The notes under the pieces were generated by a model. It was given only the letters and a program-made list of their open reading frames with translations. It made no database searches and was not told the origin of the DNA. The position numbers and the translations under genes are program-made. DNA of 38,561 nucleotides. It comes from a phage. This document shows positions 3,077-38,232 of the stretch, one piece after another. The stretch lies in sequence record PZ344858.1; one strand, written 5' to 3'. Each line of letters starts with the position of its first letter. The first letter of the stretch is position 1.

Positions 3077-3221
3077 TCTCACAGTGTACGGACCTAAAGT
3101 TCCCCCATAGGGGTACCTAAAGCCCAGCCAATCACCTAAAGTCAACCTTCGGTTGACCTTGAGGGTTCCCTAGGGGTTGGGATGACCCTTGGGGTTTACC
3201 TTTGAGTGTCTCCTTGTCCCT
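3077..3221. repeat. Terminal repeat (direct terminal redundancy), present once in this circular permutation
   Basis: Begins tctcacagtgtacggacctaaag, the T7 left-end sequence as recalled; bounded by right-end unique sequence upstream and left-end unique sequence downstream; boundaries approximate. Confidence 0.5.
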
Positions 3222-3226
3222 ATCTG

Positions 3227-3360
3227 TTCAGTCTCCTAAAGTATCCTCCTAAAGTCCATCATCAAGCCAACACCAAAAGAATAACCTTAAAGACCCATCA
3301 AGTCAATCCCTATCTTAAAGATAATCCTAACGACCATCCTAACGACCATCCTAAAGCTGC
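3227..3360. repeat. Left-end array of short CCTAAAG/CTTAAAG-type direct repeats, including tandem atcctaacgacc x2
   Basis: cctaaag at about 3234, 3248 and 3350; atcctaacgacc repeated at 3324-3335 and 3336-3347; related copies also in the right end (about 2608, 2968, 2998) and inside the terminal repeat. Confidence 0.5.
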
Positions 3361-3415
3361 CTCGTTGTTACCTATAAAGAGATTATCTTTAATCATTGTC
3401 TTTAATCACTCCCAT

Positions 3416-3438
3416 TAATTCGACTCACTAAAGGGAGA
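3416..3438 (+). promoter_or_regulatory. T7-RNAP-type promoter at the left end (phiOL-like)
   Basis: taattcgactcactaaagggaga; 21/23 match to consensus TAATACGACTCACTATAGGGAGA; predicted +1 G at 3433. Confidence 0.7.
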
Positions 3439-3496
3439 TAAGACTACTTAAAGAGGACCAAAGAGAGAGATTAATCAAAATAATTTTAAAAGAGTA

Positions 3497-3526
3497 TTGA
3501 CTTAAAGGGTCCTACCGGTTTACTAT
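3497..3526 (+). promoter_or_regulatory. Host sigma70-type early promoter (A1-like)
   Basis: -35 ttgact at 3497-3502; -10-like tactat 17-18 bp downstream. Confidence 0.55.
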
Positions 3527-3625
3527 TCATCTCGTCAACGGGACAACGGCCCAAAAGCCACTCCCTGAGATACCGGGGTCAACCGGATAAGTAGACAGCC
3601 TGATAAGTCATACGAAAACCAGGCA

Positions 3626-3655
3626 TTGACAACACGCAGTAACATGCAGTAAGAT
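3626..3655 (+). promoter_or_regulatory. Host sigma70-type early promoter (A2-like)
   Basis: -35 ttgaca at 3626-3631; 18 bp spacer; -10 taagat at 3650-3655. Confidence 0.7.
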
Positions 3656-3731
3656 ACACAGCGTCAACACGGTAGCACAGTGTCTTCTAGGTGACTTAAG
3701 CGCACCACGGCACATAAGGTGAAACAAACGG

Positions 3732-5269: not shown

Positions 5270-6349
5270 GTGAACGCTATCGACATCATGAACGCTATCG
5301 ACGCAATCAAAGCACTGCCAATCTGTGAACTTGATAAGCGTCAAAGTATGCTCATTGATTTACTGGTCGAGATGGTCAACAACGAAACGTGTGACGGTGA
5401 AATCACCAAGCTGGATAAGCCGCTTGAATATCAAGACTGGTGGACTACCTTAAGGTGCCTCACCACTGACGCTGGCTTCACGATGCTCGGTAATGGTCAC
5501 TTCTCCGCTGCATATAGTCACCCACTGCTGCCTAACAGAGTGATTAAGGTGGGCTTTAAGAAAGAGGATTCAGGCGCTGCGTATATCGCATTCTGCCGCA
5601 TGTATCAGGGTCGCGCTGGTATCCCTAACGTCTACGATGTTCAACGCCATGCAGGCTGCTATACGGTGGTTCTTGATGCTCTGAATGAATGTGAGCGAGA
5701 TGATAACTATGAGCACGACAAATACGCTGAGATTGCAAGCGACATCATTGACTGCAACTCTGATATGCACGATTGGCGTGGCGGATGGGTTGGGGAGTTC
5801 GTCGAAACTTGCAAACTAATCCGCAAGTTCTTTGAGGGCATCGCTTCGTTCGACATGCACAGCGGGAACATCATGTTCGACGATAATGACGTACCGTACA
5901 TTACCGACCCGGTGTCATTCTCACAGAAGAAAGACGGTGGCGCTTTCAGCATGGACCCTGAGGAACTCATCAAGGAAGTCGAGGAAGTCGCACGACAGAA
6001 AGAAATTGACCGCGCCAAGGAGCGTAAAGAACGCCATGAGGGGCGCTTAGAAGCTCGCAGAATGAAACGCCGTAACCGTAAGGCTCGCAAAGCACACCGC
6101 GCTAAGCGTGAAAGGATGATTGCTGCGTGGCGCATGGTTGAGCGTAAAGAACGTCGTAACCATGAGGTAGCTGTAGATGTACTAGGAAGGACCAATAACG
6201 CTATGCTCTGGGCGCACATGTTCGCTGGGGACTTTAAGGCGCTTGAGGAACGAATCGCAGCGCACTGGTTCCAAGCTGACCGCATGGCTATCGCTAATGG
6301 TCTTCCGCTAAACATTGATAAGAAACTGGACGCAATGCTAATGGGATGA
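5270..6349 (+). CDS. 0.7: Serine/threonine protein kinase and host-transcription shut-off protein (T7 gp0.7 homolog)
   Basis: 359 aa, GTG start with RBS ggag; strong similarity to T7 gp0.7 including the arginine/lysine-rich C-terminal region. Confidence 0.9.
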
Positions 6350-6419: not shown

Positions 6420-9071
6420 ATGAGCACGATTAACATCGCTAAGAACGATTTCTCTGACATCGAACTGGCTGCTATCCCGTTCAATACTCTGGCTGACCAC
6501 TATGGTGAGCGCCTAGCTCGCGAGCAGTTGGCCCTTGAACATGAGTCTTACGAGATGGGCGAGGCACGTTTCCGCAAGATGTTTGAGCGTCAACTTAAGG
6601 CCGGTGAGGTTGCAGACAATGCGGCTGCTAAACCACTGATTACTACTCTGCTGCCTAAGATGGTTACACGCATCAACGACTGGTTTGAGGAAGTGAAGGC
6701 TAAGCGCGGCAAACGTCCAACCGCTTTCCAGTTCCTGCAAGGAATCAAGCCGGAATCTGTAGCGTATATCACCATCAAGACTACCCTTGCTTGTCTGACG
6801 AGCGTGGACAATACAACCGTTCAGGCTGTAGCAAGCGCCATCGGACGGGCTATCGAGGAAGAAGCTCGCTTCGGTCGAATCCGTGACCTAGAAGCTAAGC
6901 ACTTCAAGAAAAACGTTGAGGAACAACTCAATAAGCGCGTAGGGCATGTCTACAAGAAAGCATTCATGCAAGTAGTCGAGGCCGATATGCTCTCAAAGGG
7001 TCTACTCGGTGGCGAGGCGTGGTCTACATGGCACAAGGAAGACTCCATTCACGTAGGTGTGCGCTGCATTGAGATGCTCATTGAGTCAACCGGAATGGTT
7101 AGCTTGCACCGCCAAAATGCTGGCGTAGTGGGCCAAGACTCTGAGACTATCGAACTGGCACACGAATACGCTGAGGCTATCGCAACACGGGCTGGGGCAC
7201 TGGCGGGTATCTCTCCGATGTATCAGCCTTGCATAGTACCGCCTAAACCTTGGACTGGTGTAACTGGTGGCGGATACTGGGCTAACGGTCGCCGTCCGCT
7301 GGTACTGGTACGCACCCACAGCAAGAAGGCACTGATGCGCTACGAAGATGTTTACATGCCTGAGGTATACAAGGCGATCAACATTGCGCAAAACACCGCT
7401 TGGAAAATCAACAAGAAAGTCCTAGCGGTCGCCAACGTAATCACCAAGTGGAAGCACTGCCCGGTCGAGGACATCCCAGCGATTGAACGTGAAGAACTCC
7501 CGATGAAACCGGAAGACATCGACACGAATCCTGAGGCGCTCACCACTTGGAAACGTGCCGCTGCCGCTGTGTATCGTAAGGACAAGGCCCGTAAGTCTCG
7601 CCGCATAAGCCTTGAGTTCATGCTTGAGCAAGCCAATAAGTTTGCTAACCGTAAGGCCATCTGGTTCCCTTACAACATGGACTGGCGCGGTCGCGTGTAC
7701 GCTGTGTCAATGTTCAATCCGCAAGGTAACGACATGACCAAAGGACTGCTAACACTGGCTAAAGGTAAACCAATCGGCAAGGAAGGATTCTACTGGCTGA
7801 AAATCCACGGGGCAAACTGCGCGGGAGTTGATAAGGTTCCATTCCCTGAGCGCATCAAGTTCATTGAGGACAACCACGATAACATCATGGCGTGCGCTAA
7901 GTCCCCACTGGAGAACACTTGGTGGGCTGAGCAAGATTCTCCGTTCTGCTTCCTCGCGTTCTGCTTTGAGTACGCTGGGGTACAGCACCACGGCCTGAGC
8001 TACAACTGCTCGCTGCCATTGGCTTTCGATGGGTCTTGCTCCGGTATCCAGCACTTCTCCGCGATGCTCCGCGATGAGGTGGGTGGCCGTGCTGTTAACC
8101 TGCTGCCTAGCGAAACCGTTCAGGACATCTACGGGATTGTTGCCAAGAAAGTCAACGAGATTCTGCAAGCTGATGCAATCAACGGTACCGATAACGAAGT
8201 GATTACCGTGACCGATGAGAACACTGGTGAAATCTCTGAGAAAGTCAAGCTGGGCACTAAAGCACTGGCTGGTCAATGGTTGGCCTACGGTGTGACTCGT
8301 AGCGTAACTAAGCGTTCAGTCATGACTCTGGCCTATGGCTCCAAAGAGTTCGGCTTCCGCCAGCAAGTCCTTGAGGACACCATACAGCCAGCTATTGATT
8401 CAGGAAAAGGCCTGATGTTCACGCAACCGAATCAAGCTGCTGGGTATATGGCTAAGCTGATTTGGGAGTCAGTGAGTGTTACCGTAGTGGCTGCTGTAGA
8501 GGCCATGAACTGGCTTAAGTCTGCTGCTAAGCTGCTGGCTGCTGAGGTCAAAGATAAGAAGACTGGTGAGATTCTTCGCAAGCGTTGCGCAGTGTATTGG
8601 GTAACTCCTGATGGCTTCCCTGTGTGGCAAGAATACAAGAAGCCAATTCAGACTCGCTTGAACTTGATGTTCCTCGGTCAGTTCCGCTTACAGCCGACCA
8701 TCAACACCAACAAGGACAGCGAGATTGATGCTCATAAGCAGGAGTCTGGTATCGCTCCTAACTTTGTGCACAGCCAAGACGGTAGCCACCTACGTAAGAC
8801 TGTAGTGTGGGCGCACGAGAAGTACGGAATCGAATCTTTTGCACTGATTCATGACTCCTTCGGGACCATTCCGGCTGATGCTGCCAACCTATTCAAGGCT
8901 GTTCGTGAGACTATGGTTGACACCTACGAGTCCTGCGATGTACTTGCAGACTTCTACAACCAGTTCGCTGACCAGTTACATGAATCTCAACTGGATAAAA
9001 TGCCAGCACTTCCGGCTAAAGGTAACTTGAATTTACGAGACATCTTAGAGTCAGACTTCGCGTTTGCGTAA
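6420..9071 (+). CDS. 1: Single-subunit DNA-directed RNA polymerase (T7 gp1 homolog)
   Basis: 883 aa, the same length as T7 RNAP and near-identical along the whole protein as recalled. Confidence 0.98.
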   Translation: MSTINIAKNDFSDIELAAIPFNTLADHYGERLAREQLALEHESYEMGEARFRKMFERQLKAGEVADNAAAKPLITTLLPKMVTRINDWFEEVKAKRGKRPTAFQFLQGIKPESVAYITIKTTLACLTSVDNTTVQAVASAIGRAIEEEARFGRIRDLEAKHFKKNVEEQLNKRVGHVYKKAFMQVVEADMLSKGLLGGEAWSTWHKEDSIHVGVRCIEMLIESTGMVSLHRQNAGVVGQDSETIELAHEYAEAIATRAGALAGISPMYQPCIVPPKPWTGVTGGGYWANGRRPLVLVRTHSKKALMRYEDVYMPEVYKAINIAQNTAWKINKKVLAVANVITKWKHCPVEDIPAIEREELPMKPEDIDTNPEALTTWKRAAAAVYRKDKARKSRRISLEFMLEQANKFANRKAIWFPYNMDWRGRVYAVSMFNPQGNDMTKGLLTLAKGKPIGKEGFYWLKIHGANCAGVDKVPFPERIKFIEDNHDNIMACAKSPLENTWWAEQDSPFCFLAFCFEYAGVQHHGLSYNCSLPLAFDGSCSGIQHFSAMLRDEVGGRAVNLLPSETVQDIYGIVAKKVNEILQADAINGTDNEVITVTDENTGEISEKVKLGTKALAGQWLAYGVTRSVTKRSVMTLAYGSKEFGFRQQVLEDTIQPAIDSGKGLMFTQPNQAAGYMAKLIWESVSVTVVAAVEAMNWLKSAAKLLAAEVKDKKTGEILRKRCAVYWVTPDGFPVWQEYKKPIQTRLNLMFLGQFRLQPTINTNKDSEIDAHKQESGIAPNFVHSQDGSHLRKTVVWAHEKYGIESFALIHDSFGTIPADAANLFKAVRETMVDTYESCDVLADFYNQFADQLHESQLDKMPALPAKGNLNLRDILESDFAFA

Positions 9072-9075
9072 CGTC

Positions 9076-9098
9076 AAATTAATATCACTATAGGGAAG
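9076..9098 (+). promoter_or_regulatory. Degenerate T7-type promoter (phi1.1 position)
   Basis: aaattaatatcactatagggaag: perfect -8 to +4 (TCACTATAGGGA) but the upstream CGAC core (-12 to -9) is missing. Confidence 0.35.
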
Positions 9099-9176
9099 AC
9101 CTTAAGGTTTAACTTTAAGACCCTTAAGTGTTAATTAAAGATTTAAATTAAAGACTACTAAGAGAGGACTTTAAGT

Positions 9177-9305
9177 ATGCGTAACTTCGAAAAGATGACC
9201 AAACGTTCTAACCGTAACGCTCATGACTTCGAGGCAACCAAGGGTCGTAAGTTGAATAAGACAAAGCGTGATCGCTCACACAAGCGTAGCTGGGAGGGTC
9301 AGTAA
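9177..9305 (+). CDS. 1.1: gp1.1-like small basic protein
   Basis: 42 aa MRNFEKMTKRSNRNAHDFEATKGRKLNKTKRDRSHKRSWEGQ; RBS agagagga; matches T7 gp1.1 as recalled. Confidence 0.75.
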   Translation: MRNFEKMTKRSNRNAHDFEATKGRKLNKTKRDRSHKRSWEGQ

Positions 9306-9306
9306 G

Positions 9307-9564
9307 ATGGGACGTTTATACAGTGGGAACCTGAATGACTTCAAGGATGCTTGCAACAGGCTCTACCAGTTGGACCTTGCTGTTATAGCCGTTGAGCAGG
9401 AAGGTTCGCCAAACATAAAGGCAACCATGTACCTTCGGATTGAAGATCGTACTGGTCGCATAGTTGCTCAGGAAGAGATTCACCACTGCGACGAAGATAT
9501 TCTGTACAATATGGGAACATCTTGGTTGAACCGTATGTACGACCAGTTGAAGGACTGGAAGTAA
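9307..9564 (+). CDS. 1.2: gp1.2-like protein (host dGTPase inhibitor in T7)
   Basis: 85 aa starting MGRLYSGNL with RBS gggaggg; C-terminus NRMYDQLKDWK matches T7 gp1.2; the ORF-track start at 9268 is an upstream extension. Confidence 0.85.
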   Translation: MGRLYSGNLNDFKDACNRLYQLDLAVIAVEQEGSPNIKATMYLRIEDRTGRIVAQEEIHHCDEDILYNMGTSWLNRMYDQLKDWK

Positions 9565-9584
9565 TACGACTCACTAAAGGGACA
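9562..9584 (+). promoter_or_regulatory. T7-type promoter (phi1.3)
   Basis: taatacgactcactaaagggaca; overlaps the gene 1.2 stop codon. Confidence 0.85.
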
Positions 9585-9586
9585 AT

Positions 9587-9620
9587 GCTTAAGGTCGCTC
9601 CAACTGAGTGGCCTTAGTCG
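9587..9620 (+). promoter_or_regulatory. RNase III-type processing hairpin (R1.3-like)
   Basis: cttaaggtcgctccaactgagtggccttag, imperfect stem with internal mismatch. Confidence 0.5.
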
Positions 9621-9644
9621 TTTAACCGATAGGAGATACTAACC

Positions 9645-10733
9645 ATGATGAACATTAAGACCAACCCATTCAAAGCCGTGTCTTTCGTAGAGTCTGCCAT
9701 TAAGAAAGCTCTCGATAACGCTGGGTATCTTATTGCTGACGTTAAATACGATGGTGTACGTGGTAACATCTGCGTAGACAATACCGCTAACAGTTGCTGG
9801 CTCTCTCGTGTATCTAAACCGATTCCGGCACTGGAGCACTTAAACGGATTTGATGTTCGCTGGAAGCGTCTACTCAACGATGACCGTTGCTTCTACAAAG
9901 ATGGCTTTATGCTTGATGGTGAACTCATGGTCAAAGGTGTAGACTTCAACACTGGGTCCGGCCTACTGCGTACCAAGTGGCTCAACAAGAAGAACTTTGA
10001 GTTCGACGTTGGCGGTGTGCCACCACTCAAGGGGTCAAAGGTTGAGTTCGCGTTGGACACCAAACGTCTGAGTGTCAAACTGTATGCTATCCTACCACTG
10101 CACATCGTAGAGTCTGGGGAAGACTGCGACATCATGACACTGCTCATGCAGGAACACGTTAAGAACATGCTGCCTCTGCTACAGGAATACTTCCCTGAAA
10201 TCGAATGGCAAGCGGCTGAGTCTTACGAGGTCTACGATATGGTAGAACTACAGCAACTGTATGAGAAGAAGCGCGAAGAAGGACATGAAGGTCTAATCGT
10301 GAAAGACCCTATGGGCATCTACAAGCGAGGTAAGAAGTCCGGATGGTGGAAAATGAAGCCAGAGAACGAGGCTGACGGTATTATCCAAGGTCTGGTATGG
10401 GGTACGGAAGGTCTGTCTAATGAGGGCAAAGTGATTGGCTTTGAGGTGCTCCTTGAGAGTGGTCGTGTAGTAAACGCCACAAACATCTCTCGCGCCTTAA
10501 TGGACGAGTTCACAGCCGTGGTAAAAGAGGCCACTTTGAAACAGTGGGGATTCTTTAGCCCGTATGGGATTGGTGACAACGATGCTTGCACCTTAAATCC
10601 CTACAATGGATGGGCCTGCCAGATTAGCTACATGGAGGAAACACCTGATGGCTCTCTGCGTCACCCATCGTTCGTATGTTTCCGTGGTACTGAGGACAAC
10701 CCTCAAGAGTATAAGGAGACACTGTATGCTTAA
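9645..10733 (+). CDS. 1.3: ATP-dependent DNA ligase (T7 gp1.3 homolog)
   Basis: 362 aa; adenylation-site motif region IADVKYDGVRG; RBS aggag. Confidence 0.95.
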   Translation: MMNIKTNPFKAVSFVESAIKKALDNAGYLIADVKYDGVRGNICVDNTANSCWLSRVSKPIPALEHLNGFDVRWKRLLNDDRCFYKDGFMLDGELMVKGVDFNTGSGLLRTKWLNKKNFEFDVGGVPPLKGSKVEFALDTKRLSVKLYAILPLHIVESGEDCDIMTLLMQEHVKNMLPLLQEYFPEIEWQAAESYEVYDMVELQQLYEKKREEGHEGLIVKDPMGIYKRGKKSGWWKMKPENEADGIIQGLVWGTEGLSNEGKVIGFEVLLESGRVVNATNISRALMDEFTAVVKEATLKQWGFFSPYGIGDNDACTLNPYNGWACQISYMEETPDGSLRHPSFVCFRGTEDNPQEYKETLYA

Positions 10734-12948: not shown

Positions 12949-13445
12949 TGCCACGCCTTAGCCGTGAGGCATTGCAGAAGAAAATTCTAGACAATGTGAT
13001 TCCCGATGAGAATGGATGCTGGATATGGCAGAAGTCATTCGGGAGTCACGGTTATGGAAACATTGCTACAGGAGGGCACCGGAATGAGACGGCACATAGG
13101 GTCTCACACGAGGTGTTCATTGGCGAGATTCCAAAAGGCCAGCTAGTCTTACACTCCTGTGATAATCGCAAGTGTTGTAATCCTGATCACTTGCGTAGCG
13201 GCACATATAAGGATAACAGCTCAGACGCTATCAGTAGAGGGAGGAACAAACTACCTCCGGTAATGATTGGAAGTGACCATGTTAATGCTAAACTGACAGA
13301 AGAAGAGGTACTTGAAATTTATATGTCAACCTTGTCGCAGCGTAAACTTGCAGCACTGTTTGGAGTCTCTCAGAAGTTAATTCATTGCATAAAGAGAGGT
13401 AAGGCATGGCAGCATGTTACGCAGCACGAGGAATTAAACGTGTAG
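12948..13445 (+). CDS. HNH-family homing endonuclease
   Basis: 165 aa; motif GCWIWQKSFGSHGYG...HRVSHEVFIGEIPKGQLVLHSCDNRKCCNPDHL typical of HNH_3 nucleases; ATG overlaps the gene 2.5 stop and the 3' end overlaps gene 3. Confidence 0.85.
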   Translation: MPRLSREALQKKILDNVIPDENGCWIWQKSFGSHGYGNIATGGHRNETAHRVSHEVFIGEIPKGQLVLHSCDNRKCCNPDHLRSGTYKDNSSDAISRGRNKLPPVMIGSDHVNAKLTEEEVLEIYMSTLSQRKLAALFGVSQKLIHCIKRGKAWQHVTQHEELNV

Positions 13446-13858
13446 GAAACTACCGAAGTGGACTTGAAGAGAAAAATATGGCACGCTTGGAGAGTATGGG
13501 AGTTAAGGCTAAATATGAATCCTTCTCAATCCCTTATGTAATACCAGCTAGTAATCATAAATATACACCTGACGCGTTGCTACCAAACGGTATCATAGTA
13601 GAGTTCAAGGGATTGTTCGAAGCAGAAGACCGTAAGAAACATTTACTTATTCGCGAACAGTTCCCAGACCTCGATATACGCATCGTGTTCTCTTCAAGTC
13701 GCACCAAGTTATACAAAGGGTCTCCCACCAGCTACGGTGAGTGGGCAGAAAAACACAGCATTAAGTTCGCAGATAAGTTGATACCTGCGGAATGGCTTAA
13801 AGAACCTAGTAAGGAGATTCCTTGGGACAAAATGATTATTAAGAAGGAGAAGAAATAA
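13406..13858 (+). CDS. 3: Endonuclease I, Holliday-junction resolvase (T7 gp3 homolog)
   Basis: 150 aa; conserved VPYVIPASNH...PDALLPNGI...RIVFSSSRTKLYKGSPTSYGEW matches T7 endonuclease I. Confidence 0.9.
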   Translation: MAACYAARGIKRVGNYRSGLEEKNMARLESMGVKAKYESFSIPYVIPASNHKYTPDALLPNGIIVEFKGLFEAEDRKKHLLIREQFPDLDIRIVFSSSRTKLYKGSPTSYGEWAEKHSIKFADKLIPAEWLKEPSKEIPWDKMIIKKEKK

Positions 13859-14313: not shown

Positions 14314-14333
14314 TTGATTGTTCGCATCATTGA

Positions 14334-17135: not shown

Positions 17136-19292
17136 ATGATCGTTTCTGACATCGAAGCTAACGCCCTCTTAGAGAGCGTCACTAAGTTCCACTGCGGGGT
17201 TATCTACGACTACTCCACCGATGAGTACGTAAGCTACCGACCGAGTGACTTCGGTGCGTATCTGGATGCGCTGGAAGCCGAGGTTGCACGAGGCGGTCTT
17301 ATTGTGTTCCACAACGGTCACAAGTATGACGTTCCCGCATTGACCAAACTGGCAAAGCTACAATTGAACCGTGAGTTCCACCTACCCCGTGAGAACTGTA
17401 TTGACACACTTGTGTTGTCACGCTTGATTCACTCCAACCTGAAAGACACCGATATGGGTCTTCTGCGTTCCGGTAAGTTGCCTGGTAAACGCTTTGGGTC
17501 TCACGCTCTGGAGGCGTGGGGCTATCGCTTAGGTGAAATGAAAGGTGAATACAAGGATGACTTTAAGCATATGCTTGAAGAGCAAGGTGAAGAATACGTT
17601 GATGGCATGGAGTGGTGGAACTTCAACGAAGAGATGATGGCCTATAACGTTCAGGACGTTGTGGTCACTAAGGCTCTCCTTGAGAAGCTACTCTCTGACA
17701 AACATTACTTCCCTCCTGAGATTGACTTTACGGACGTAGGATACACTACGTTCTGGTCAGAATCCCTTGAGGCCGTTGACGTTGAACATCGCGCTGCATG
17801 GCTACTCGCTAAGCAAGAGCGCAATGGATTCCCGTTTGACACGAAAGCAATCGAAGAGTTGTACGTAGAGTTAGCTGCTCGTCGCTCTGAGTTGCTCCGC
17901 AAATTGACCGAAACGTTCGGCTCGTGGTATCAGCCTAAAGGTGGCACCGAAATGTTCTGCCACCCGAGGACTGGTAAGCCATTGCCTAAATATCCTCGCA
18001 TTAAGACACCTAAAGTTGGTGGCATCTTTAAGAAGCCTAAGAACAAGGCACAGAGAGAAGGCCGTGAGCCTTGCGAACTGGATACCCGCGAGTACGTTGC
18101 TGGTGCTCCTTATACGCCAGTTGAGCACGTAGTGTTTAACCCTTCGTCTCGTGACCACATCCAGAAGAAACTTCAAGAGGCTGGATGGGTCCCGACTAAG
18201 TACACCGATAAAGGTGCACCTGTGGTGGATGATGAGGTACTCGAAGGAGTAAAAGTAGATGACCCTGAGAAGCAAGCCGCTATCGACCTTATTAAAGAAT
18301 ACTTGATGATTCAGAAGAGAATCGGACAATCTGCTGAGGGAGACAAGGCATGGCTTCGTTACGTTGCTGAGGATGGTAAAATTCATGGTTCTGTTAACCC
18401 CAATGGTGCTGTTACTGGGCGCGCTACTCACGCTTTCCCTAACCTCGCACAGGTACCCGGTGTCCGCTCTCCTTATGGTGATCGGTGCCGCTCTGCTTTT
18501 GGCGCTGAACATCACCTAGATGGACTTACAGGTAAGCCTTGGGTTCAGGCTGGTATAGACGCCTCAGGTCTGGAGTTGCGCTGCTTGGCCCACTTCATGG
18601 CTCGATTTGACAACGGTGAGTATGCTCACGAGATTCTCAATGGCGATATTCACTGGAAGAACGCAATTGCTGCCGACTTAGCACCAAACGTTGCCCGTGA
18701 TAAACACAATAAGGAACACGACCTAATGCGTGATAACGCCAAGACGTTTATCTATGGGTTCCTCTATGGTGCTGGTGATGAGAAGACTGGTCAGATTGTA
18801 GGTGCTGGTAAAGAACGCGGTAAGGAACTCAAGAAGAAATTCCTTGAGAACACCCCAGCGATTGCCGCACTCCGAGAGTCTATCCAACAGGCTCTTGTTG
18901 AGTCCTCTCAGTGGGTAGCGGGTGAACAACAAGTCAAGTGGAAACGCCGCTGGATTAAAGGTCTGGATGGTCGTAAGGTACACGTTCGTAGTCCTCACGC
19001 TGCCTTGAATACCCTACTGCAATCTGCTGGTGCTCTCATCTGCAAACTGTGGATTATCAAGACCGAAGAGATGCTCGTAGAGAAAGGCTTGAAGCACGGC
19101 TGGGATGGGGACTTTGCGTACATGGCATGGGTACATGACGAAATCCAAGTAGGTTGCCGTACCGAAGAGATTGCTCAGGTGGTCATTGAGACCGCACAAG
19201 AAGCAATGCGCTGGGTTGGAGACCACTGGAACTTCCGGTGTCTTCTGGATACCGAAGGTAAGATTGGTCCTAATTGGGCGATTTGCCATTAA
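17136..19292 (+). CDS. 5: DNA polymerase with 3'-5' exonuclease (T7 gp5 homolog)
   Basis: 718 aa; family A polymerase motifs ([26 protein letters not shown]); near-identical to T7 gp5 except for a short insertion. Confidence 0.97.
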
Positions 19293-19305
19293 AGGAGGTA
19301 TACAA

Positions 19306-19662
19306 GTGGATTCGAAACACGTCACTGGTGCTGCGTCGGAACTACTTGTTGCCTACAAGTTTACCAAGGCTGGGTACACTGTGTATTACCCTATGCTTAC
19401 TCAAAGTAAAGAGGACTTAGTTGTATGTAAGGATGGTAAATTTAGTAAGGTGCAGGTTAAGACTGCGACAGCGTTAACTGTTGGCGGAAGTACGGCACAT
19501 CAAGTCAGACTAGGCGGTTGTGGTAGAGCGTCCTACAAGGATGGCGACTTTGACCTACTGGCTGCTGTGGTGGAAGATGAAGTCCTCCTGTACACATGGG
19601 AGGAAGTTAAAGGCAAGACCTCTATGTGCGTAGGTAAGCGCAACAAAGGCGTTAAACTATAG
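19306..19662 (+). CDS. 5.3: gp5.3-like protein
   Basis: 118 aa from a GTG start 7 nt after RBS aaaggagg; size matches T7 gp5.3 as recalled; the ORF-track version 19171-19662 overlaps the gene 5 3' end. Confidence 0.65.
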   Translation: MDSKHVTGAASELLVAYKFTKAGYTVYYPMLTQSKEDLVVCKDGKFSKVQVKTATALTVGGSTAHQVRLGGCGRASYKDGDFDLLAAVVEDEVLLYTWEEVKGKTSMCVGKRNKGVKL

Positions 19663-21327: not shown

Positions 21328-21365
21328 TAAACTCAAGGTCCAGGGGCCTTTATGATTATTACTTT
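21324..21365 (+). promoter_or_regulatory. RNase III-type processing hairpin (R6.5-like), without an associated T7 promoter
   Basis: gtgataaactcaaggtccaggggcctttatgattattacttt. Confidence 0.5.
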
Positions 21366-22644: not shown

Positions 22645-24261
22645 ATGGCTGAGAAGCGTACAGGTCTAGCCGAGGAAGGTGCTAAGTCGGTCTATGAACG
22701 ATTGAAGAACGACCGTGCCCCGTATGAGACTCGTGCTCAAAACTGCGCTCAGTACACCATTCCGTCCCTCTTCCCTAAGGACTCCGATAACGCATCTACA
22801 GACTACACAACTCCGTGGCAAGCTGTGGGTGCTCGCGGTCTCAATAACTTGGCCTCTAAGCTCATGCTGGCTCTCTTCCCTATGCAAACGTGGATGAAAC
22901 TGACCATCTCTGAGTTTGAGGCCAAACAGTTACTGGATGACCCCGATGGACTCGCTAAGGTTGATGAGGGCCTCTCAATGGTAGAGCGCATCATCATGAA
23001 CTACATTGAGTCTAACAGCTACCGAGTGACTCTCTTCGAGGCTCTCAAGCAGTTAGTCGTTGCTGGCAACGTCCTGCTGTACCTACCGGAACCAGAAGGG
23101 TCGAACTATAATCCCATGAAGCTGTACCGATTGTCTTCTTATGTGGTCCAACGAGACGCATTCGGCAACGTTCTGCAAATGGTGACTCGCGACCAGATAG
23201 CTTTCGGAGCACTCCCTGAGGATGTCCGTAAGGCTGTAGAAGGTCAAGGTGGTGAGAAGAAACCTGATGAGACCATTGATGTGTACACTCACGTCTATCT
23301 GGATGAAGAATCAGGGGAGTATCTCCGCTACGAAGAGGTTGAGGGTATGGAGGTCCAAGGCTCAGACGGGTCTTACCCTAAAGAGGCTTGTCCATACATC
23401 CCGATTCGAATGGTTCGACTCGACGGTGAATCCTACGGTCGTTCGTACATTGAGGAATACTTAGGTGACTTACGGTCCCTTGAGAATCTCCAAGAGGCTA
23501 TCGTCAAGATGTCCATGATTAGCTCTAAGGTTATCGGCTTAGTGAATCCTGCTGGTATCACCCAGCCACGCCGACTGACCAAAGCTCAGACTGGTGACTT
23601 CGTTACTGGTCGTCCAGAAGACATCTCATTCCTACAACTGGAGAAGCAAGCAGACTTTACTGTAGCTAAAGCCGTAAGTGACGCTATTGAGGCTCGCCTT
23701 TCGTTTGCCTTCATGTTGAACTCTGCGGTTCAGCGCACTGGTGAACGTGTGACCGCCGAAGAGATTCGGTACGTTGCGTCAGAACTTGAAGATACTTTAG
23801 GTGGTGTCTACTCTATCCTTTCTCAAGAATTACAATTGCCTCTGGTACGAGTGCTCTTGAAGCAACTACAAGCCACGCAACAGATTCCTGAGTTACCTAA
23901 GGAAGCCGTAGAGCCAACTATTAGTACAGGTCTGGAAGCAATCGGTCGTGGTCAAGACCTTGATAAGCTGGAACGCTGTGTCTCTGCATGGGCTGCTCTG
24001 GCCCCTATGCGCGATGACCCAGACATCAACCTTGCGATGATTAAGTTACGCATTGCTAACGCTATCGGTATTGACACTTCTGGCATCCTTCTTACCGAAG
24101 AGCAGAAGCAACAGAAGATGGCTCAACAGTCTGTTCAAATGGGTATGGATAATGGCGCTGCTGCGCTTGGTCAAGGTATGGCTGCACAGGCTACGGCTTC
24201 ACCTGAGGCTATGGCTGCTGCCGCTGATTCCGTTGGTTTACAGCCGGTCCAGATTGAGTGA
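22645..24261 (+). CDS. 8: Head-to-tail connector (portal) protein (T7 gp8 homolog)
   Basis: 538 aa, RBS aggaggt; follows 7.3 directly with no gene 7.7. Confidence 0.97.
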   Translation: MAEKRTGLAEEGAKSVYERLKNDRAPYETRAQNCAQYTIPSLFPKDSDNASTDYTTPWQAVGARGLNNLASKLMLALFPMQTWMKLTISEFEAKQLLDDPDGLAKVDEGLSMVERIIMNYIESNSYRVTLFEALKQLVVAGNVLLYLPEPEGSNYNPMKLYRLSSYVVQRDAFGNVLQMVTRDQIAFGALPEDVRKAVEGQGGEKKPDETIDVYTHVYLDEESGEYLRYEEVEGMEVQGSDGSYPKEACPYIPIRMVRLDGESYGRSYIEEYLGDLRSLENLQEAIVKMSMISSKVIGLVNPAGITQPRRLTKAQTGDFVTGRPEDISFLQLEKQADFTVAKAVSDAIEARLSFAFMLNSAVQRTGERVTAEEIRYVASELEDTLGGVYSILSQELQLPLVRVLLKQLQATQQIPELPKEAVEPTISTGLEAIGRGQDLDKLERCVSAWAALAPMRDDPDINLAMIKLRIANAIGIDTSGILLTEEQKQQKMAQQSVQMGMDNGAAALGQGMAAQATASPEAMAAAADSVGLQPVQIE

Positions 24262-25256: not shown

Positions 25257-25526
25257 ACTCTCGCTGGCACCTCTCGCTCGGATGCTACCGGTCAGAAGCA
25301 CGCCTTCCCGGCTACTAAGAGCGGTACTGACAAGGTTGCTAAGGACAACGTTATCGGCCTGTTCATGCACCGCTCTGCGGTAGGTACTGTTAAGCTGCGT
25401 GACTTGGCTCTGGAACGTGCTCGCCGTGCTAACTTCCAAGCGGACCAGATTATCGCGAAGTACGCAATGGGCCACGGTGGTCTGCGTCCAGAAGCTGCTG
25501 GTGCTGTGGTTTTCACGGCAGCGTAA
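25257..25526 (+). pseudogene. 10: Remnant of the major capsid protein gene (3' end of T7 gene 10A homolog), without start codon, RBS or promoter
   Basis: In-frame translation ...TGQKHAFPATKSGTDKVAKDNVIGLFMHRSAVGTVKLRDLALERARRANFQADQIIAKYAMGHGGLRPEAAGAVVFTAA* matches the C-terminal part of T7 gp10A as recalled; preceded by TGA TAG. Confidence 0.8.
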
Positions 25527-25637
25527 TGCTGAAAGTGGCCTCAACGGTCGCTGCTAGTCCCGAAGAGGTGAGCATTACTACCGAAGAGAGTCTAACTCCA
25601 GCACAGAAAGCTGCACGCACACGCGCGCTCATACGAT

Positions 25638-26213
25638 ATGAACGTTGAGACTGCCGCTGAGTTATCCGCTGTGAACGACATTCTGGCATCTATCGGTGAA
25701 CCTCCGGTATCAACGCTGGAAGGTGACGCTAACGCAGATGTAGCGAACGCTCGGCGCATTCTCAATAAGATTAACCGACAGATTCAGTCTCGTGGCTGGA
25801 CGTTCAACATTGAGGAAGGCATAACGCTATTACCTGATGTTTACTCCAACCTGATTGTGTACAGCGATGACTATTTGTCACTAATGGCTACTTCCGGTCA
25901 ATCAGTCTATGTTAATCGAGGTGGCTATGTGTATGACCGAACGAGTCAATCTGACCGCTTTGAGTCTGGTATCACTGTTAACATTATCCGTCTACGAGAC
26001 TACGATGAGATGCCTGAGTGCTTCCGATACTGGATTGTCACTAAGGCTTCCCGTCAGTTCAACAACCGATTCTTTGGGGCACCAGAAGTAGAGGGTGTAC
26101 TACAAGAAGAGGAGGATGAGGCTCGACGTCTCTGTATGGAGTACGAAGTGGATTATGGCGGTTATAACATGCTGGATGGTGACGCGTTCACTTCTGGTCT
26201 ACTGACTCGCTAA
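25638..26213 (+). CDS. 11: Tail tubular protein A (T7 gp11 homolog), starting at an internal methionine relative to T7
   Basis: 191 aa [23 protein letters not shown]...; T7 gp11 begins MRSYDMNVE as recalled; no Shine-Dalgarno sequence upstream here. Confidence 0.85.
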
Positions 26214-28621: not shown

Positions 28622-28671
28622 TACATAATGTTCTCCCTGTGGTGTCAATACGACTACGGGAGGGTTTTCTT

Positions 28672-34900: not shown

Positions 34901-35933
34901 TCGCTCTCCGTGGACTAAGCTGCTTAATGGAACCACTAACTACCTTCTGGATGCTGCGCGTCAAGGTATGCTTGGGGACGTGATTAGTGCCACCCTAACA
35001 GGTAAGACTACCCGCTGGGAGAAAGAAGGATTCCTTCGGGGTGCCTCAATAACCCCTGAGCAGATGCAGGGAATCAAGGCACTCATTAAGGAACACATGG
35101 TGCGTGGTGAAGATGGTAAGTATACCGTTAAGGATAAGCACGCGTTCTCTATGGACCCAAGAGCTATGGACTTGTGGCGACTGGCTGATAAGGTAGCTGA
35201 CGAGGCAATGCTGCGTCCGCATAAGGTGTCCTTACAGGATTCACATGCGTTCGGAGCATTAGGCAAGATGGTGATGCAGTTTAAGTCTTTCACCATTAAA
35301 TCCCTTAACTCTAAGTTTCTGCGAACCTTCTACGATGGGTACAAGAACAACCGAGCGATTGACGCTGCGCTGACTGGTATCATCTCTATGGGTCTCGCTG
35401 GTGGTTACTACGCTATGGCTGCACACGTCAAAGCGTATGGAATGCCTAAGGAGAAACGTAAAGAATACTTGGAGCGTGCATTGGACCCAACCATGATTGC
35501 CCACGCGTCGTTATCTCGTAGTTCTCAATTAGGTGCTCCTTTGGCTATGGCTGACCTAGTTGGTGGCCTGTTCGGGGTTGAGTCCTCAAAGATGGCTCGC
35601 TCTACTATTCTTCCTAAAGACACCATGAGGGAGCGTGACCCTAATAAGCCTTATACCTCGTGGGAGGTAATGGGTAATATGGGTTCCAACATTCTTGAAC
35701 AGATGCCTTCGGCTGGATTTGTGGCTAACGTTGGGGCTTCCCTACTTAATACTGCTGGCGTGGTGAATGCTCCTAACAAAGCCACTGAGCAGGACTTCAT
35801 GACTGGTCTCATGAACTCCACAAAAGAGTTAGTACCGAACGACCCATTGACGCAACAGCTTGTGTTGAAGATTTATGAGGCGAATGGTGTTAACTTGAGG
35901 GAGCGTCGGAACGAAAGAATCTTCTCCCTGTAG
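31959..35933 (+). CDS. 16: Internal virion (core) protein D with N-terminal lytic transglycosylase domain (T7 gp16 homolog)
   Basis: 1324 aa; N-terminal SLT-like motif ESRFQPTAKSKTGPLGMMQF; RBS aaggagg. Confidence 0.95.
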   Translation: MDKYDKNVPSEYDGLFQKAADANGVSYDLLRKVAWTESRFQPTAKSKTGPLGMMQFTKATAKAMGLRVTDGPYDDRLNPELAINAAAKHLAGLVGKFDGDELKAALAYNQGEGRLGNPQLEAYSKGDFSSISEEGRNYLRNLLDVAKSPMSGQLEAFGGITPKGKGIPADVGLAGIGHKQKVTQELPESTSFDVKGIEQEATAKPFAKDFWETHGETLDEYNSRSTFFGFKNTAEAELSNSVAGMAFRAGRLDNGFDVFKDTITPTRWNSHIWTPEELEKIRTEVKNPAYINVVTGGSPENLDELIKLANENFEVDLRKSEAGLGAQLSAGIIGAGVDPLSYVPMVGVTGKGFKLINKALVVGAESAALNVASEGLRTSVAGGDSDYAGAALGGFVFGAGMSAISDAIAAGLKRGKPEAEFDNEFIGPMMRMEARETARNANSADLSRINTENMKFEGEYKGVPYEELPTEKGAVVLHDGSILSASNPINPKTLKEFSEVDPEKAARGIKLAGFTEIGLKTLGSDDADIRRVAIDLVRSPTGMQSGSSGKYGSTASDIFEKLRGTDQRTYNDLYKAMSDAMKDPEFSTGGAKMSREEARYTIERRVALAIENPELQKALTPNERIVMDIVKRHYDTKRELMENPAVFGNTKAVSIFPESRHKGTYVPHVYDKYAKALKIQRYGAEGLQEGIARSWMCSYDLRPSVKARIDEALKEMHGVEEVTHDMVYKYAMDKAYGISHSDRFTNSSIIEENIEGLVGIENNSFLEARNLFDSDLAITMPDGEQFSVNDLRDFSMFRIMPAYDRRINGDIAIMGSTGKTTKELKDEILALKAKAEGDGKKTGEVHALMDTVKILTGRARRNQDTVWETSLRSINDLGFFAKNAYMGAQNLTEIAGMIATGNVRALGHGIPILRDTLYRSKPVSAKELKELHASLFGKEVDQLIRPQRADIVQRLREATDTGPVVANIVGTLKYSTQELAARSPWTKLLNGTTNYLLDAARQGMLGDVISATLTGKTTRWEKEGFLRGASITPEQMQGIKALIKEHMVRGEDGKYTVKDKHAFSMDPRAMDLWRLADKVADEAMLRPHKVSLQDSHAFGALGKMVMQFKSFTIKSLNSKFLRTFYDGYKNNRAIDAALTGIISMGLAGGYYAMAAHVKAYGMPKEKRKEYLERALDPTMIAHASLSRSSQLGAPLAMADLVGGLFGVESSKMARSTILPKDTMRERDPNKPYTSWEVMGNMGSNILEQMPSAGFVANVGASLLNTAGVVNAPNKATEQDFMTGLMNSTKELVPNDPLTQQLVLKIYEANGVNLRERRNERIFSL

Positions 35934-35960: not shown

Positions 35961-37637
35961 ATGGCTAACGTAATTAAAACCGTTTTGACTTACCCGTTAG
36001 ATGGCTCCAATCGTGATTTTAATATTCCGTTTGAGTATCTGGCCCGTAAGTTCGTAGTGGTAACTCTTATTGGTGTTGACCGCAAGGTCCTTACGCTCAA
36101 TACAGATTATCGCTTTGCTACGCGCACTACTATCTCGCTGACCAAATCTTGGGGTCCTGCTGATGGCTACACGACCATCGAGTTGCGCCGAGTAACCTCC
36201 ACGACCGACCGATTGGTTGACTTTACGGACGGCTCAATCCTGCGTGCGTATGACCTTAACGTAGCGCAGATTCAGACTATGCATGTGGCAGAAGAGGCCC
36301 GTGACTTAACTGCGGATACCATTGGTGTCAACAATGATGGTCACTTGGATGCCCGTGGTCGTCGTATCGTGAACCTAGCGAACGCTGTGGATGACCGTGA
36401 TGCCGTTCCATTTGGTCAACTTAAGACCATGAACCAGAACTCATGGCAAGCGCGTAATGAAGCCTTACAGTTCCGTAATGAGGCTGAGACTTTCAGAAAC
36501 CAAGCGGAGGGCTTTAAGAACGAGTCCAGCACTAACGCTACGAATACCAATCAGTGGCGTAATGAGGCTAAGGGGTTCCGTGATGAGGCCGAACAGTTCA
36601 AGAACACTGCGGCACAACAGGCTACCGCTGCTAGTAACTCTGCGGCTGCTGCTCACCAATCCGAGGTGAACGCTGCGAACTCCGCTACTGCATCCGCTAA
36701 CTCTGCCCAGTCGGCAGAACAGCAAGCAGACCGTGCGGAGCGTGAAGCAGACAAGTTGGGTAACTGGAATGCACTTGCAGAGGCCATTGAGGAAGTAAGT
36801 CCTGACCATGTGGTCACGTGGGCGGCTACTGCTAAGTTTAACGGTGAACTTATTGCTAAACGTTCTTCAACCCTGAATGCAACTGCCGAAGCTGGCTCTA
36901 TGGGGCAGATGGTACATGAATATGACCCGACTGCCGGGCGGTACACCTCAAATACATTTTGGGCTATCAAACACCCACATCAAGATGGATGGCACGTTCC
37001 CTTTCAGGTTCAAAGTAAACCTAATGATTCTGCTACATGGGAGATGCACTTCGGGGACTTCATGCATTGCTACAATGGCTTGCAGGTCGAAGGGTTCAAC
37101 AAACCGCTAGGTGTTACTAATCAGGCTAATACTGCCGTTAAGACGGTGGCACATGGTCCGGGTGATTTAGCCCAAGGCTCATGGGTATGTAACACCAGAT
37201 GGAGTTTCTACGACGCAGGGTTAGAAATTGGATGGGTTCGTGGTGGCTCTTCGAATGGCAACGGCCTACTCAGGTGGAAACCGGAAGCATCTCAAGCGAC
37301 GTATCATGACATTTGGCTAAACCCAGGTGGCGAGGTACAATTCCCATCCACGATTAAGGCAGGTGCTGCAACATATGCCGTTGATGGAAACATTGCCGGA
37401 ACTGTATGGGGCGGTTCTGGTCATCTTTACGGGTGGCTTAGAGAAAACACAGTCAACCACATTGCGATGGGTGGAGTTAACTGGGCGCAACTGTGGAGGG
37501 CTGGCGGTGTTGATGATGGTGGCGGTAAGGTCATAACAGGTATTTTAAACACGAACGCCGATGACACGGTAGATGGCTGCCAGTGGCGTGTTATGCAATA
37601 TGTACGCAACGATGGTCAACGCTTCAATATTTACTAA
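35961..37637 (+). CDS. 17: Tail fibre protein (T7 gp17-like N-terminal half, divergent C-terminal receptor-binding half)
   Basis: 558 aa; residues 1 to about 265 near-identical to T7 gp17 as recalled; remainder unrelated to the T7 tip. Confidence 0.95.
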   Translation: MANVIKTVLTYPLDGSNRDFNIPFEYLARKFVVVTLIGVDRKVLTLNTDYRFATRTTISLTKSWGPADGYTTIELRRVTSTTDRLVDFTDGSILRAYDLNVAQIQTMHVAEEARDLTADTIGVNNDGHLDARGRRIVNLANAVDDRDAVPFGQLKTMNQNSWQARNEALQFRNEAETFRNQAEGFKNESSTNATNTNQWRNEAKGFRDEAEQFKNTAAQQATAASNSAAAAHQSEVNAANSATASANSAQSAEQQADRAEREADKLGNWNALAEAIEEVSPDHVVTWAATAKFNGELIAKRSSTLNATAEAGSMGQMVHEYDPTAGRYTSNTFWAIKHPHQDGWHVPFQVQSKPNDSATWEMHFGDFMHCYNGLQVEGFNKPLGVTNQANTAVKTVAHGPGDLAQGSWVCNTRWSFYDAGLEIGWVRGGSSNGNGLLRWKPEASQATYHDIWLNPGGEVQFPSTIKAGAATYAVDGNIAGTVWGGSGHLYGWLRENTVNHIAMGGVNWAQLWRAGGVDDGGGKVITGILNTNADDTVDGCQWRVMQYVRNDGQRFNIY

Positions 37638-37649
37638 AGGAGATACACT

Positions 37650-38177
37650 ATGAAGACTTTACGTCACTATAAGAACTTCGTAAACTATATCCCAGAACGC
37701 ACCAAAGAGAATGCAGACCTTCTGGACCACGGAGTTGGCTTCTCAAAGGACGAGAATGGGAATGACTGGTATGAACTACGTGAGACATTCCGTGAGGATA
37801 CGTGGAAACTTGTCTATGCTAAAGATGGTTCGGTTATCCAGTGTGAACAGGATGTTCAGGAGTTAGCCGTGCAGGGTTCTGCTGGGGTAGTTGAACTTGA
37901 GGAAATCCCTGCTGAATACTCTCGTTACAATATGATGCAGTGGTGGTGGGACGGTGAGAAGCTCACTTGGTATCCGAGATACTTTGAGAACCAGAAGGCT
38001 CGTCTACTCTCTATGGCCTCCAAGAAGATTGAGCAGTATGCTGACTTTATGGCGCTTGGGGAGGAGGGATTAGAGGGTCTACTAAATGCGTGGCGAATCT
38101 ATCGACTTGCTGTGTATAAAGTGGACCTAAGTGTTCTACCTTTTTACGATTGGCCTGAGAAGCCTGAGGACTTATAA
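37650..38177 (+). CDS. Tail fibre assembly protein / chaperone (lambda Tfa-like)
   Basis: 175 aa with RBS aaaggag; C-terminal NAWRIYRLAVYKVDLSVLPFYDWPEKPE resembles lambda Tfa [27 protein letters not shown]; located immediately 3' of the tail-fibre gene. Confidence 0.8.
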   Translation: MKTLRHYKNFVNYIPERTKENADLLDHGVGFSKDENGNDWYELRETFREDTWKLVYAKDGSVIQCEQDVQELAVQGSAGVVELEEIPAEYSRYNMMQWWWDGEKLTWYPRYFENQKARLLSMASKKIEQYADFMALGEEGLEGLLNAWRIYRLAVYKVDLSVLPFYDWPEKPEDL

Positions 38178-38232
38178 CAACCACACAAGGAAAGACGTGT
38201 AGTCCACGGATGGACTCAGTTATGGAGGATAC

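Follow-up and report, generated by a model that had tools for sequence, protein, structure and literature searches.

The window analysed here is the whole 38,561-nt stretch of sequence record PZ344858.1, a T7-like (Teseptimavirus) genome that is about 88% identical to T7 nearly throughout and circularly permuted, its first position being equivalent to about T7 36673. On the plus strand, gene 1 (6420–9071, stop codon 9069–9071) encodes an intact T7-type RNA polymerase of 883 amino acids, and gene 1.1 (9177–9305) encodes an intact protein of 42 amino acids, which is found as the same protein on many metagenome contigs. The two genes are separated by 105 nt. Within this intergenic region, positions 9076–9098 consist of AAATTAATA followed directly by TCACTATAGGGAAG, with no gap between the halves, which gives the region its junction form TAATATCACTATAGGG. 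Alignment with T7, vB_YenP_WW2 (WW2 in the following), and HZP2 identifies the first half (9076–9084, plus strand) as a remnant of the phi1.1A promoter, comprising its upstream flank and positions −17 to −13, and the second half (9085–9098, plus strand) as a remnant of phi1.1B, which spans −8 to +6 and in which 9093 would be the start G (+1). Just 3′ of the phi1.1B start, a small hairpin of the phi1.1B leader, CUUAAGGUUUAACUUUAAG (9101–9119, plus strand), is retained. This predicted stem–loop is invariant in eight of eight aligned sequences and presumably stabilises phi1.1B transcripts at their 5′ end. Further downstream, the first T7-type promoter that is intact is phi1.3, TAATACGACTCACTAAAGGGACA (9562–9584, plus strand), with 35.6 bits on a T7 promoter matrix.

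In T7, the same site between genes 1 and 1.1 is occupied by phi1.1A, the R1.1 RNase III hairpin, and phi1.1B (T7 5831–5928; map of Dunn and Studier 1983). The initial annotation had given this arrangement for T7, and rightly so: the T7 record V01146 annotates phi1.1A at 5848 and phi1.1B at 5923. The flanks are common to T7 and the window: AAATTAATA lies upstream, and on the other side TCACTATAGGGAAG leads into the conserved leader CTTAAGG...CCTTAAG and then into the ribosome-binding site of gene 1.1. What lies between them differs. Exactly 79 nt (T7 5836–5914) are absent between positions 9084 and 9085 relative to T7 and to WW2 and HZP2, the closest intact relatives. These 79 nt are the 75-nt unit that leads from phi1.1A to phi1.1B and contains R1.1, plus the four bases CGAC; lost are, therefore, CGAC and the rest of phi1.1A, the entire R1.1 hairpin, and phi1.1B through its CGAC. 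Compared with T7, the window is without a complete promoter and without an RNase III hairpin at this site, and AATA replaces CGAC at −12 to −9. The missing hairpin and the missing CGAC of the specificity region had both been noticed initially from the window alone, and both are borne out by the alignment with T7, whose arrangement is 79 nt longer than that of the window.

The remnant was scored with a position weight matrix derived from the 17 annotated T7 promoters. The 23-mer at 9076–9098 reaches 3.2 bits—to be compared with 26.5–39.9 bits for the 17 T7 promoters and 26.5–36.0 bits for the eight intact promoters of the window. The initiation half is perfect, as had been claimed: TATAGGG is present at −4 to +3, and TCACTATAGGGAAG is identical to the corresponding part of phi1.1B in WW2 and HZP2. 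The specificity bases at −12 to −8, on the other hand, read AATAT versus CGACT of a T7-type promoter. Positions −12 to −9 are contacted by the specificity loop of T7 RNA polymerase. Since AATA substitutes CGAC at precisely the bases that this loop reads, the remnant should be inactive as a T7 promoter, as far as can be told from its sequence. An altered polymerase specificity that would compensate for the remnant could be ruled out, because the recognition loops are those of T7 RNA polymerase: the polymerase of the window is 97.5% identical to it, with the AT-rich recognition loop (93–101), the intercalating hairpin, and the specificity loop (739–770) unchanged.

A matrix scan found no other T7-type promoter within 9072–9176, which agrees with the earlier description of 9076–9098 as the sole promoter-like element after the polymerase gene. 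A substitute promoter or RNA element in the wider interval 8800–9700 was considered as well and rejected: this interval holds no sigma-70-like site and gives no Rfam match, and the fold of the 105-nt intergenic RNA is not better than that of shuffled sequence (z = −0.5). The R1.1-type hairpin—an irregular structure of about 60 nt made up of a lower stem, an internal loop, and an upper stem—is absent from the intergenic region of the window and present in WW2 and in the aligned natural contigs.

The phi1.1 gap is one of nine clean excisions spread around the window. A phiOR scar lies at 2534/2535 (31 nt absent in the alignment with T7 and WW2), and the alignment further places a phi3.8 scar at 14317/14318 (36 nt absent), a phi6.5 scar at 21341/21342 (30 nt absent, the same 30-nt gap being found in four of four affected genomes), a phi9 scar at 24247/24248 (about 30 nt absent, the position being approximate as the downstream flank has diverged), a phi13 scar at 28644/28645 (32 nt absent), and a phi17 scar at 35911/35912 (26 nt absent). 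At 25259/25260, phi10, the leader of gene 10, and some 257 codons from the start of the major capsid gene are absent (T7 about 22880–23735, about 860 nt), and at 25624/25625, Tphi is absent together with the start codon of gene 11 (T7 24106–24229, 124 nt). As a result, the matrix scan finds no perfect-consensus promoter left in the window—the class III promoters phi6.5, phi9, phi10, phi13, and phi17 as well as phiOR are all missing—and eight class II-type promoters that are kept, at 3416, 9562, 10879, 10996, 12183, 15438, 16108, and 16681. Of gene 10, the C-terminal part remains (25260–25526), with a remnant ORF of 53 amino acids (25365–25526), the kind of fragment that is annotated as 'virion structural' or 'major capsid' in the phages vB_Yep_9 and AH67C600_Q5, and no ORF of capsid length is found anywhere in the window. 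The gene 11 ORF starts at an internal methionine (25638–26213) and encodes 191 amino acids instead of 196; a search of the protein index for this truncated gp11 gave no entry. Because the capsid ORF, the gene 11 start codon, and the late promoters are missing, a phage of this sequence could not make particles, and the genome as written could not be viable.

The edges of several of these gaps can be compared with the T7 fragments carried by laboratory vectors. The Tphi gap spans T7 24106–24229; in PLSDB, pET-type plasmids have a T7 match that starts exactly at 24106 and ends at about 24229–24232, the BLAST match of the pET Tphi fragment extending to 24232 with one terminal mismatch. The pET-type phi10 fragment starts at −23 of phi10 and includes the leader of gene 10 and N-terminal codons. 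The pET plasmids match from T7 22881, and the homology of the window ends at 22879, which puts the left edge of the gene 10 gap at about T7 22880. The two ends of the Tphi gap, like the left end of the gene 10 gap, hence fall on cloning junctions of T7 expression vectors rather than on boundaries of biological origin. On its right side, the gene 10 gap ends near codon 257–260 in every affected genome, which corresponds to the reach of the gene 10 segment present in pET-3x/pGEMEX-type vectors. At phi3.8, the upstream part TAATTGA stays, and the excision begins at ACTCAC, where the resemblance to the pET phi10 promoter and leader sets in (ACTCACTATAGGGAGACC.CAACGGTTTCCCT); it is the part with this resemblance that is lost. 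The pET-type vectors are laboratory constructs, and as such they account for the parts that were removed and not for what the phage contains.

The promoters can also be sorted by the number of consecutive bases that they have in common with vector-type T7 promoters: the surviving ones have at most 21–22, the lost ones at least 23. The weakest internal-match score of VecScreen is 23, and the split between 21–22 and 23 fits this threshold. The phi6.5, phiOR, and phi17 gaps reach 1–4 nt past the longest match to phi10-type vector sequence that could be reconstructed. As for the locus between genes 1 and 1.1, phi1.1A and phi1.1B each have only 22 consecutive bases in common with vector promoters, and promoter matches alone would therefore be insufficient to remove the phi1.1 region. 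Since both promoters stay below the match threshold on their own, a cloned R1.1 fragment must be assumed. The pET vectors described by the Studier laboratory reportedly included an R1.1 fragment. A literature search on R1.1-carrying vectors and on damage to T7-like genomes by vector screens returned nothing usable. In PLSDB, the sole match to phi1.1A–R1.1–phi1.1B is a Yersinia "plasmid" that in fact represents a phage, and the fragment T7 5836–5914 was not found in any PLSDB plasmid or E. coli assembly. The matches in E. coli genomes are to the DE3 gene 1 insert only (chromosomes of the BL21(DE3) type) and end at T7 5841, a HinfI site inside phi1.1A. This end of the DE3 insert shows that classic laboratory constructs bisected phi1.1A. 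A HinfI fragment with BamHI linkers, which was tried as a candidate for the R1.1 clone, predicts the left edge of the gap (5836) and places the right edge 2 nt beyond the observed one; it was not adopted.

The phi1.1 junction is also present in other deposited phages. AH67C600_Q5 (MZ833439) and vB_Yep_9 (PV596790) carry the same junction as the window, and in vB_Yep_15 (PV596791) the gap is broken by an 8-nt island, GCTTAAAC. In all three, the gap set of the window is repeated genome-wide—consensus promoters, the N-terminus of gene 10, and Tphi—with gap edges that lie 1–4 nt apart from those of the window at some sites. The three differ by several percent from the window, and from one another where compared, which argues for independent genomes that went through the same process. 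They and PSP2-22 (ON886116) are distinct phages, the best match over 10 kb being 93.8% identical, so that the window is no copy of any of them. Within the phage collection, only AH67C600_Q5, vB_Yep_9, and vB_Yep_15 have gene 9 fused to what is left of gene 10, and among the matches listed, they are the only natural isolates with a shortened spacer between genes 1 and 1.1. The record of PSP2-22, flagged UNVERIFIED and chimeric, shows the identical junction, with TAATA joined to TCACTATAGG, in front of a phi1.1B of another type, GGAGAA; it is the only other record of natural source with the junction. The junction, hence, recurs only in GenBank records with the same excisions and in the chimeric PSP2-22.

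The identical junction in several deposited phages might be taken as a sign of a natural 79-nt deletion in the lineage, by which R1.1 would be gone and both class II promoters would be disabled, while genes 1.1–1.3 would be served by early transcripts of the host polymerase and by read-through. Such a deletion would be compatible with the T7 annotation, in which genes 1.1–1.3 belong to the early transcription unit upstream of TE, and the region is dispensable in principle, as illustrated by the T7 clone T7_1t1, which does without one promoter unit and without R1.1. However, in AH67C600_Q5, vB_Yep_9, and vB_Yep_15, the junction accompanies excisions that are impossible for a phage (capsid gene, class III promoters, and Tphi). 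It is moreover found with differing phi1.1B types (GGGAAG and GGAGAA) and differing upstream flanks, which a single inherited event leaves unexplained. The island of vB_Yep_15 is equally difficult to reconcile with a deletion: GCTTAAAC is the R1.1 loop as it occurs in WW2 and in the metagenome contig L019, and it is the sole part of the hairpin that differs from that of T7, ATTCGCAA—the retained 8 nt are, thus, exactly the loop bases in which R1.1 departs from T7. Short islands, including one of 47 nt, also survive inside the gene 10 gap of AH67C600_Q5 and vB_Yep_15 where the sequence diverges from T7. By this pattern, the excision tracks similarity to T7-derived sequence, which explains the islands, whereas a natural deletion does not.

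Unedited metagenome assemblies speak against a natural deletion, too. The comparison comprised ten contigs of 38.8–40.7 kb (from JGI, ENA, and Logan) whose gp1.1 is identical to that of the window. In the parts of these genomes that were retrieved, phi1.1A, R1.1, and phi1.1B are intact on ten out of ten raw contigs, and genes 1 and 1.1 lie 177–187 nt apart, as compared with 105 nt in the window. A perfect-consensus phiOR is found on nine of the ten. Scans for the junction as an exact pattern gave 16 matches in IMG/VR and 97 in JGI metagenomes; in the loci returned from both, none of 96 matches stands in a T7-like context, and as far as these loci show, the matches are chance matches in AT-rich sequence. 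A lineage-specific 31-mer has no match in IMG/VR, where an intact phi1.1A occurs in 13 contigs. Given these observations, we regard a natural 79-nt deletion in the lineage as quite unlikely.

How a genuine fusion of phi1.1A and phi1.1B looks can be appreciated from T7_1t1 (OL964748), a mutant T7 clone in which exactly one 75-nt repeat unit is gone and the perfect promoter TAATACGACTCACTATAGG is retained. Like the window, T7_1t1 is left with one promoter-like element between genes 1 and 1.1 and does not have R1.1 there. Unlike the window, it represents a true recombinational deletion between phi1.1A and phi1.1B without a 4-nt loss, whereas the window has lost 79 nt and, with them, recognition bases. 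The initial annotation had interpreted the remnant as a fusion of the two promoters. This holds insofar as phi1.1A sequence upstream is joined to phi1.1B sequence downstream; the biology that it implied, a natural crippling of the promoter, is not supported, because the same record is without its consensus promoters, Tphi, and the greater part of the capsid gene, the edges matching pET fragments; because unedited close relatives always keep both promoters and R1.1; because the junction is confined to records with the same excisions and to a chimeric one; and because the hybrid promoter that results from the genuine fusion is intact and has not lost the 4 nt.

The comparison with T7_1t1 bears equally on a collapse during assembly, in which the 19–22-nt direct repeats of phi1.1A and phi1.1B would have been merged and the 75-nt unit dropped. 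The two promoters are indeed direct repeats 75 nt apart, and the window resembles a short-read assembly in being circularly permuted with a collapsed terminal repeat. Nevertheless, merging of the repeats would yield the clean hybrid promoter TAATACGACTCACTATAGG of T7_1t1 and not a 79-nt loss that includes CGAC, and it gives no account of the 860-nt gene 10 gap, of the Tphi gap, or of single-copy promoter sites that are lost without their flanks. With a clean hybrid promoter to be expected instead, we rejected repeat collapse by the assembler and consider it extremely unlikely.

Another conceivable origin is a filtering at the level of reads, in which reads or k-mers matching vectors or contaminants were discarded prior to assembly and the flanks were joined by scaffolding or gap closing. 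The gaps do track similarity to T7-derived laboratory sequences, and the pipeline reported for AH67C600_Q5, run at a sequencing company, consisted of Trimmomatic, SPAdes, SSPACE, and GapFiller (PMC10194157). Discarded reads, however, leave coverage holes that exceed the matched stretch and normally end in contig breaks or runs of N, and base-precise joins that keep islands of 8 and 47 nt are not expected from them. We hold this course of events to be exceedingly improbable. It is a variant of the explanation that we prefer—likewise an artefact—rather than a true rival.

Taken together, the junction at 9084/9085 is very probably a scar that was left when vector-like matches were removed from a sequence record, and not a feature of the phage. 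Under this explanation, matches to T7-derived laboratory sequences would have been cut out after assembly or at submission and the flanks joined. The matched sequences would have been vector-type consensus T7 promoters, the pET/pGEMEX-type phi10–gene 10 fragment, the pET Tphi fragment, and presumably also a cloned R1.1 fragment with −12 of phi1.1A and −9 of phi1.1B as its ends. The cuts would most likely have been prompted by a VecScreen/UniVec-type screen for vector contamination. Which tool or person made the cuts, and a screening-database entry that holds T7 5836–5914, are matters that we infer.

For the real phage, a record-editing scar would imply that gene 1 is almost certainly followed by phi1.1A, the R1.1 RNase III site, phi1.1B, and gene 1.1. 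Unedited, the region would read TAATACGACTCACTATAGAGGG...R1.1...TAATACGACTCACTATAGGGAAG, with a full intergenic distance of about 184 nt, and TAATATCACTATAGGG would not occur. In this intact arrangement, a polymerase of T7 specificity would start class II transcripts at both phi1.1A and phi1.1B, and RNase III would cut the read-through early transcripts and the phi1.1A transcripts at R1.1. A loss of phi1.1 would be biologically tolerable, and phi1.1A, phi1.1B, and R1.1 would be dispensable, because the host polymerase also transcribes genes 1.1–1.3 from the early promoters. One might, hence, imagine that the phi1.1 junction alone is a real deletion that arose naturally and repeatedly within a subset of T7-like phages and that its co-occurrence with editing artefacts is coincidental, for example by way of similar pipelines. 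We judge this to be very unlikely. If the deletion were true, both class II promoters and R1.1 would be abolished, and genes 1.1–1.3 would depend on transcripts of the host polymerase.

The junction, therefore, bears little biological weight, since the phage itself very probably possesses phi1.1A, R1.1, and phi1.1B in their textbook arrangement. Its value is rather one of data quality. The window and at least three deposited T7-like genomes appear to have been silently stripped of late promoters, a terminator, most of the capsid gene, and the phi1.1 region, and studies of promoters, regulatory RNAs, capsid phylogeny, or pangenomes that use such records will carry the false absences forward. 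The scars will also continue to turn up as oddities in automated scans. In one published analysis, the 63-amino acid capsid remnant of AH67C600_Q5 has already been read as a genuine "small" replacement major capsid protein, for a phage whose capsid is described as normal, icosahedral, and about 50 nm in size (PMC10194157).

Apart from the nine excisions, some further differences between the window and its relatives are seen. Three stretches have no nucleotide BLAST match to T7: 12949–13531 (gene 2.5 to gene 3), 19280–19656 (after the DNA polymerase gene), and 36790–38184 (C-terminal part of the tail fibre). These are probably ordinary mosaic variation of the group. The terminal repeat (about 140–160 nt; 3077–3216) is present in one copy, as expected of a short-read assembly that was closed into a circle. 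Upstream of the early promoters, the left-end repeats at 3256–3660 differ from those of WW2 by length differences of 12–35 nt and contain short repeats of the CCTAAAG type; these length differences look like natural repeat variation rather than excision.
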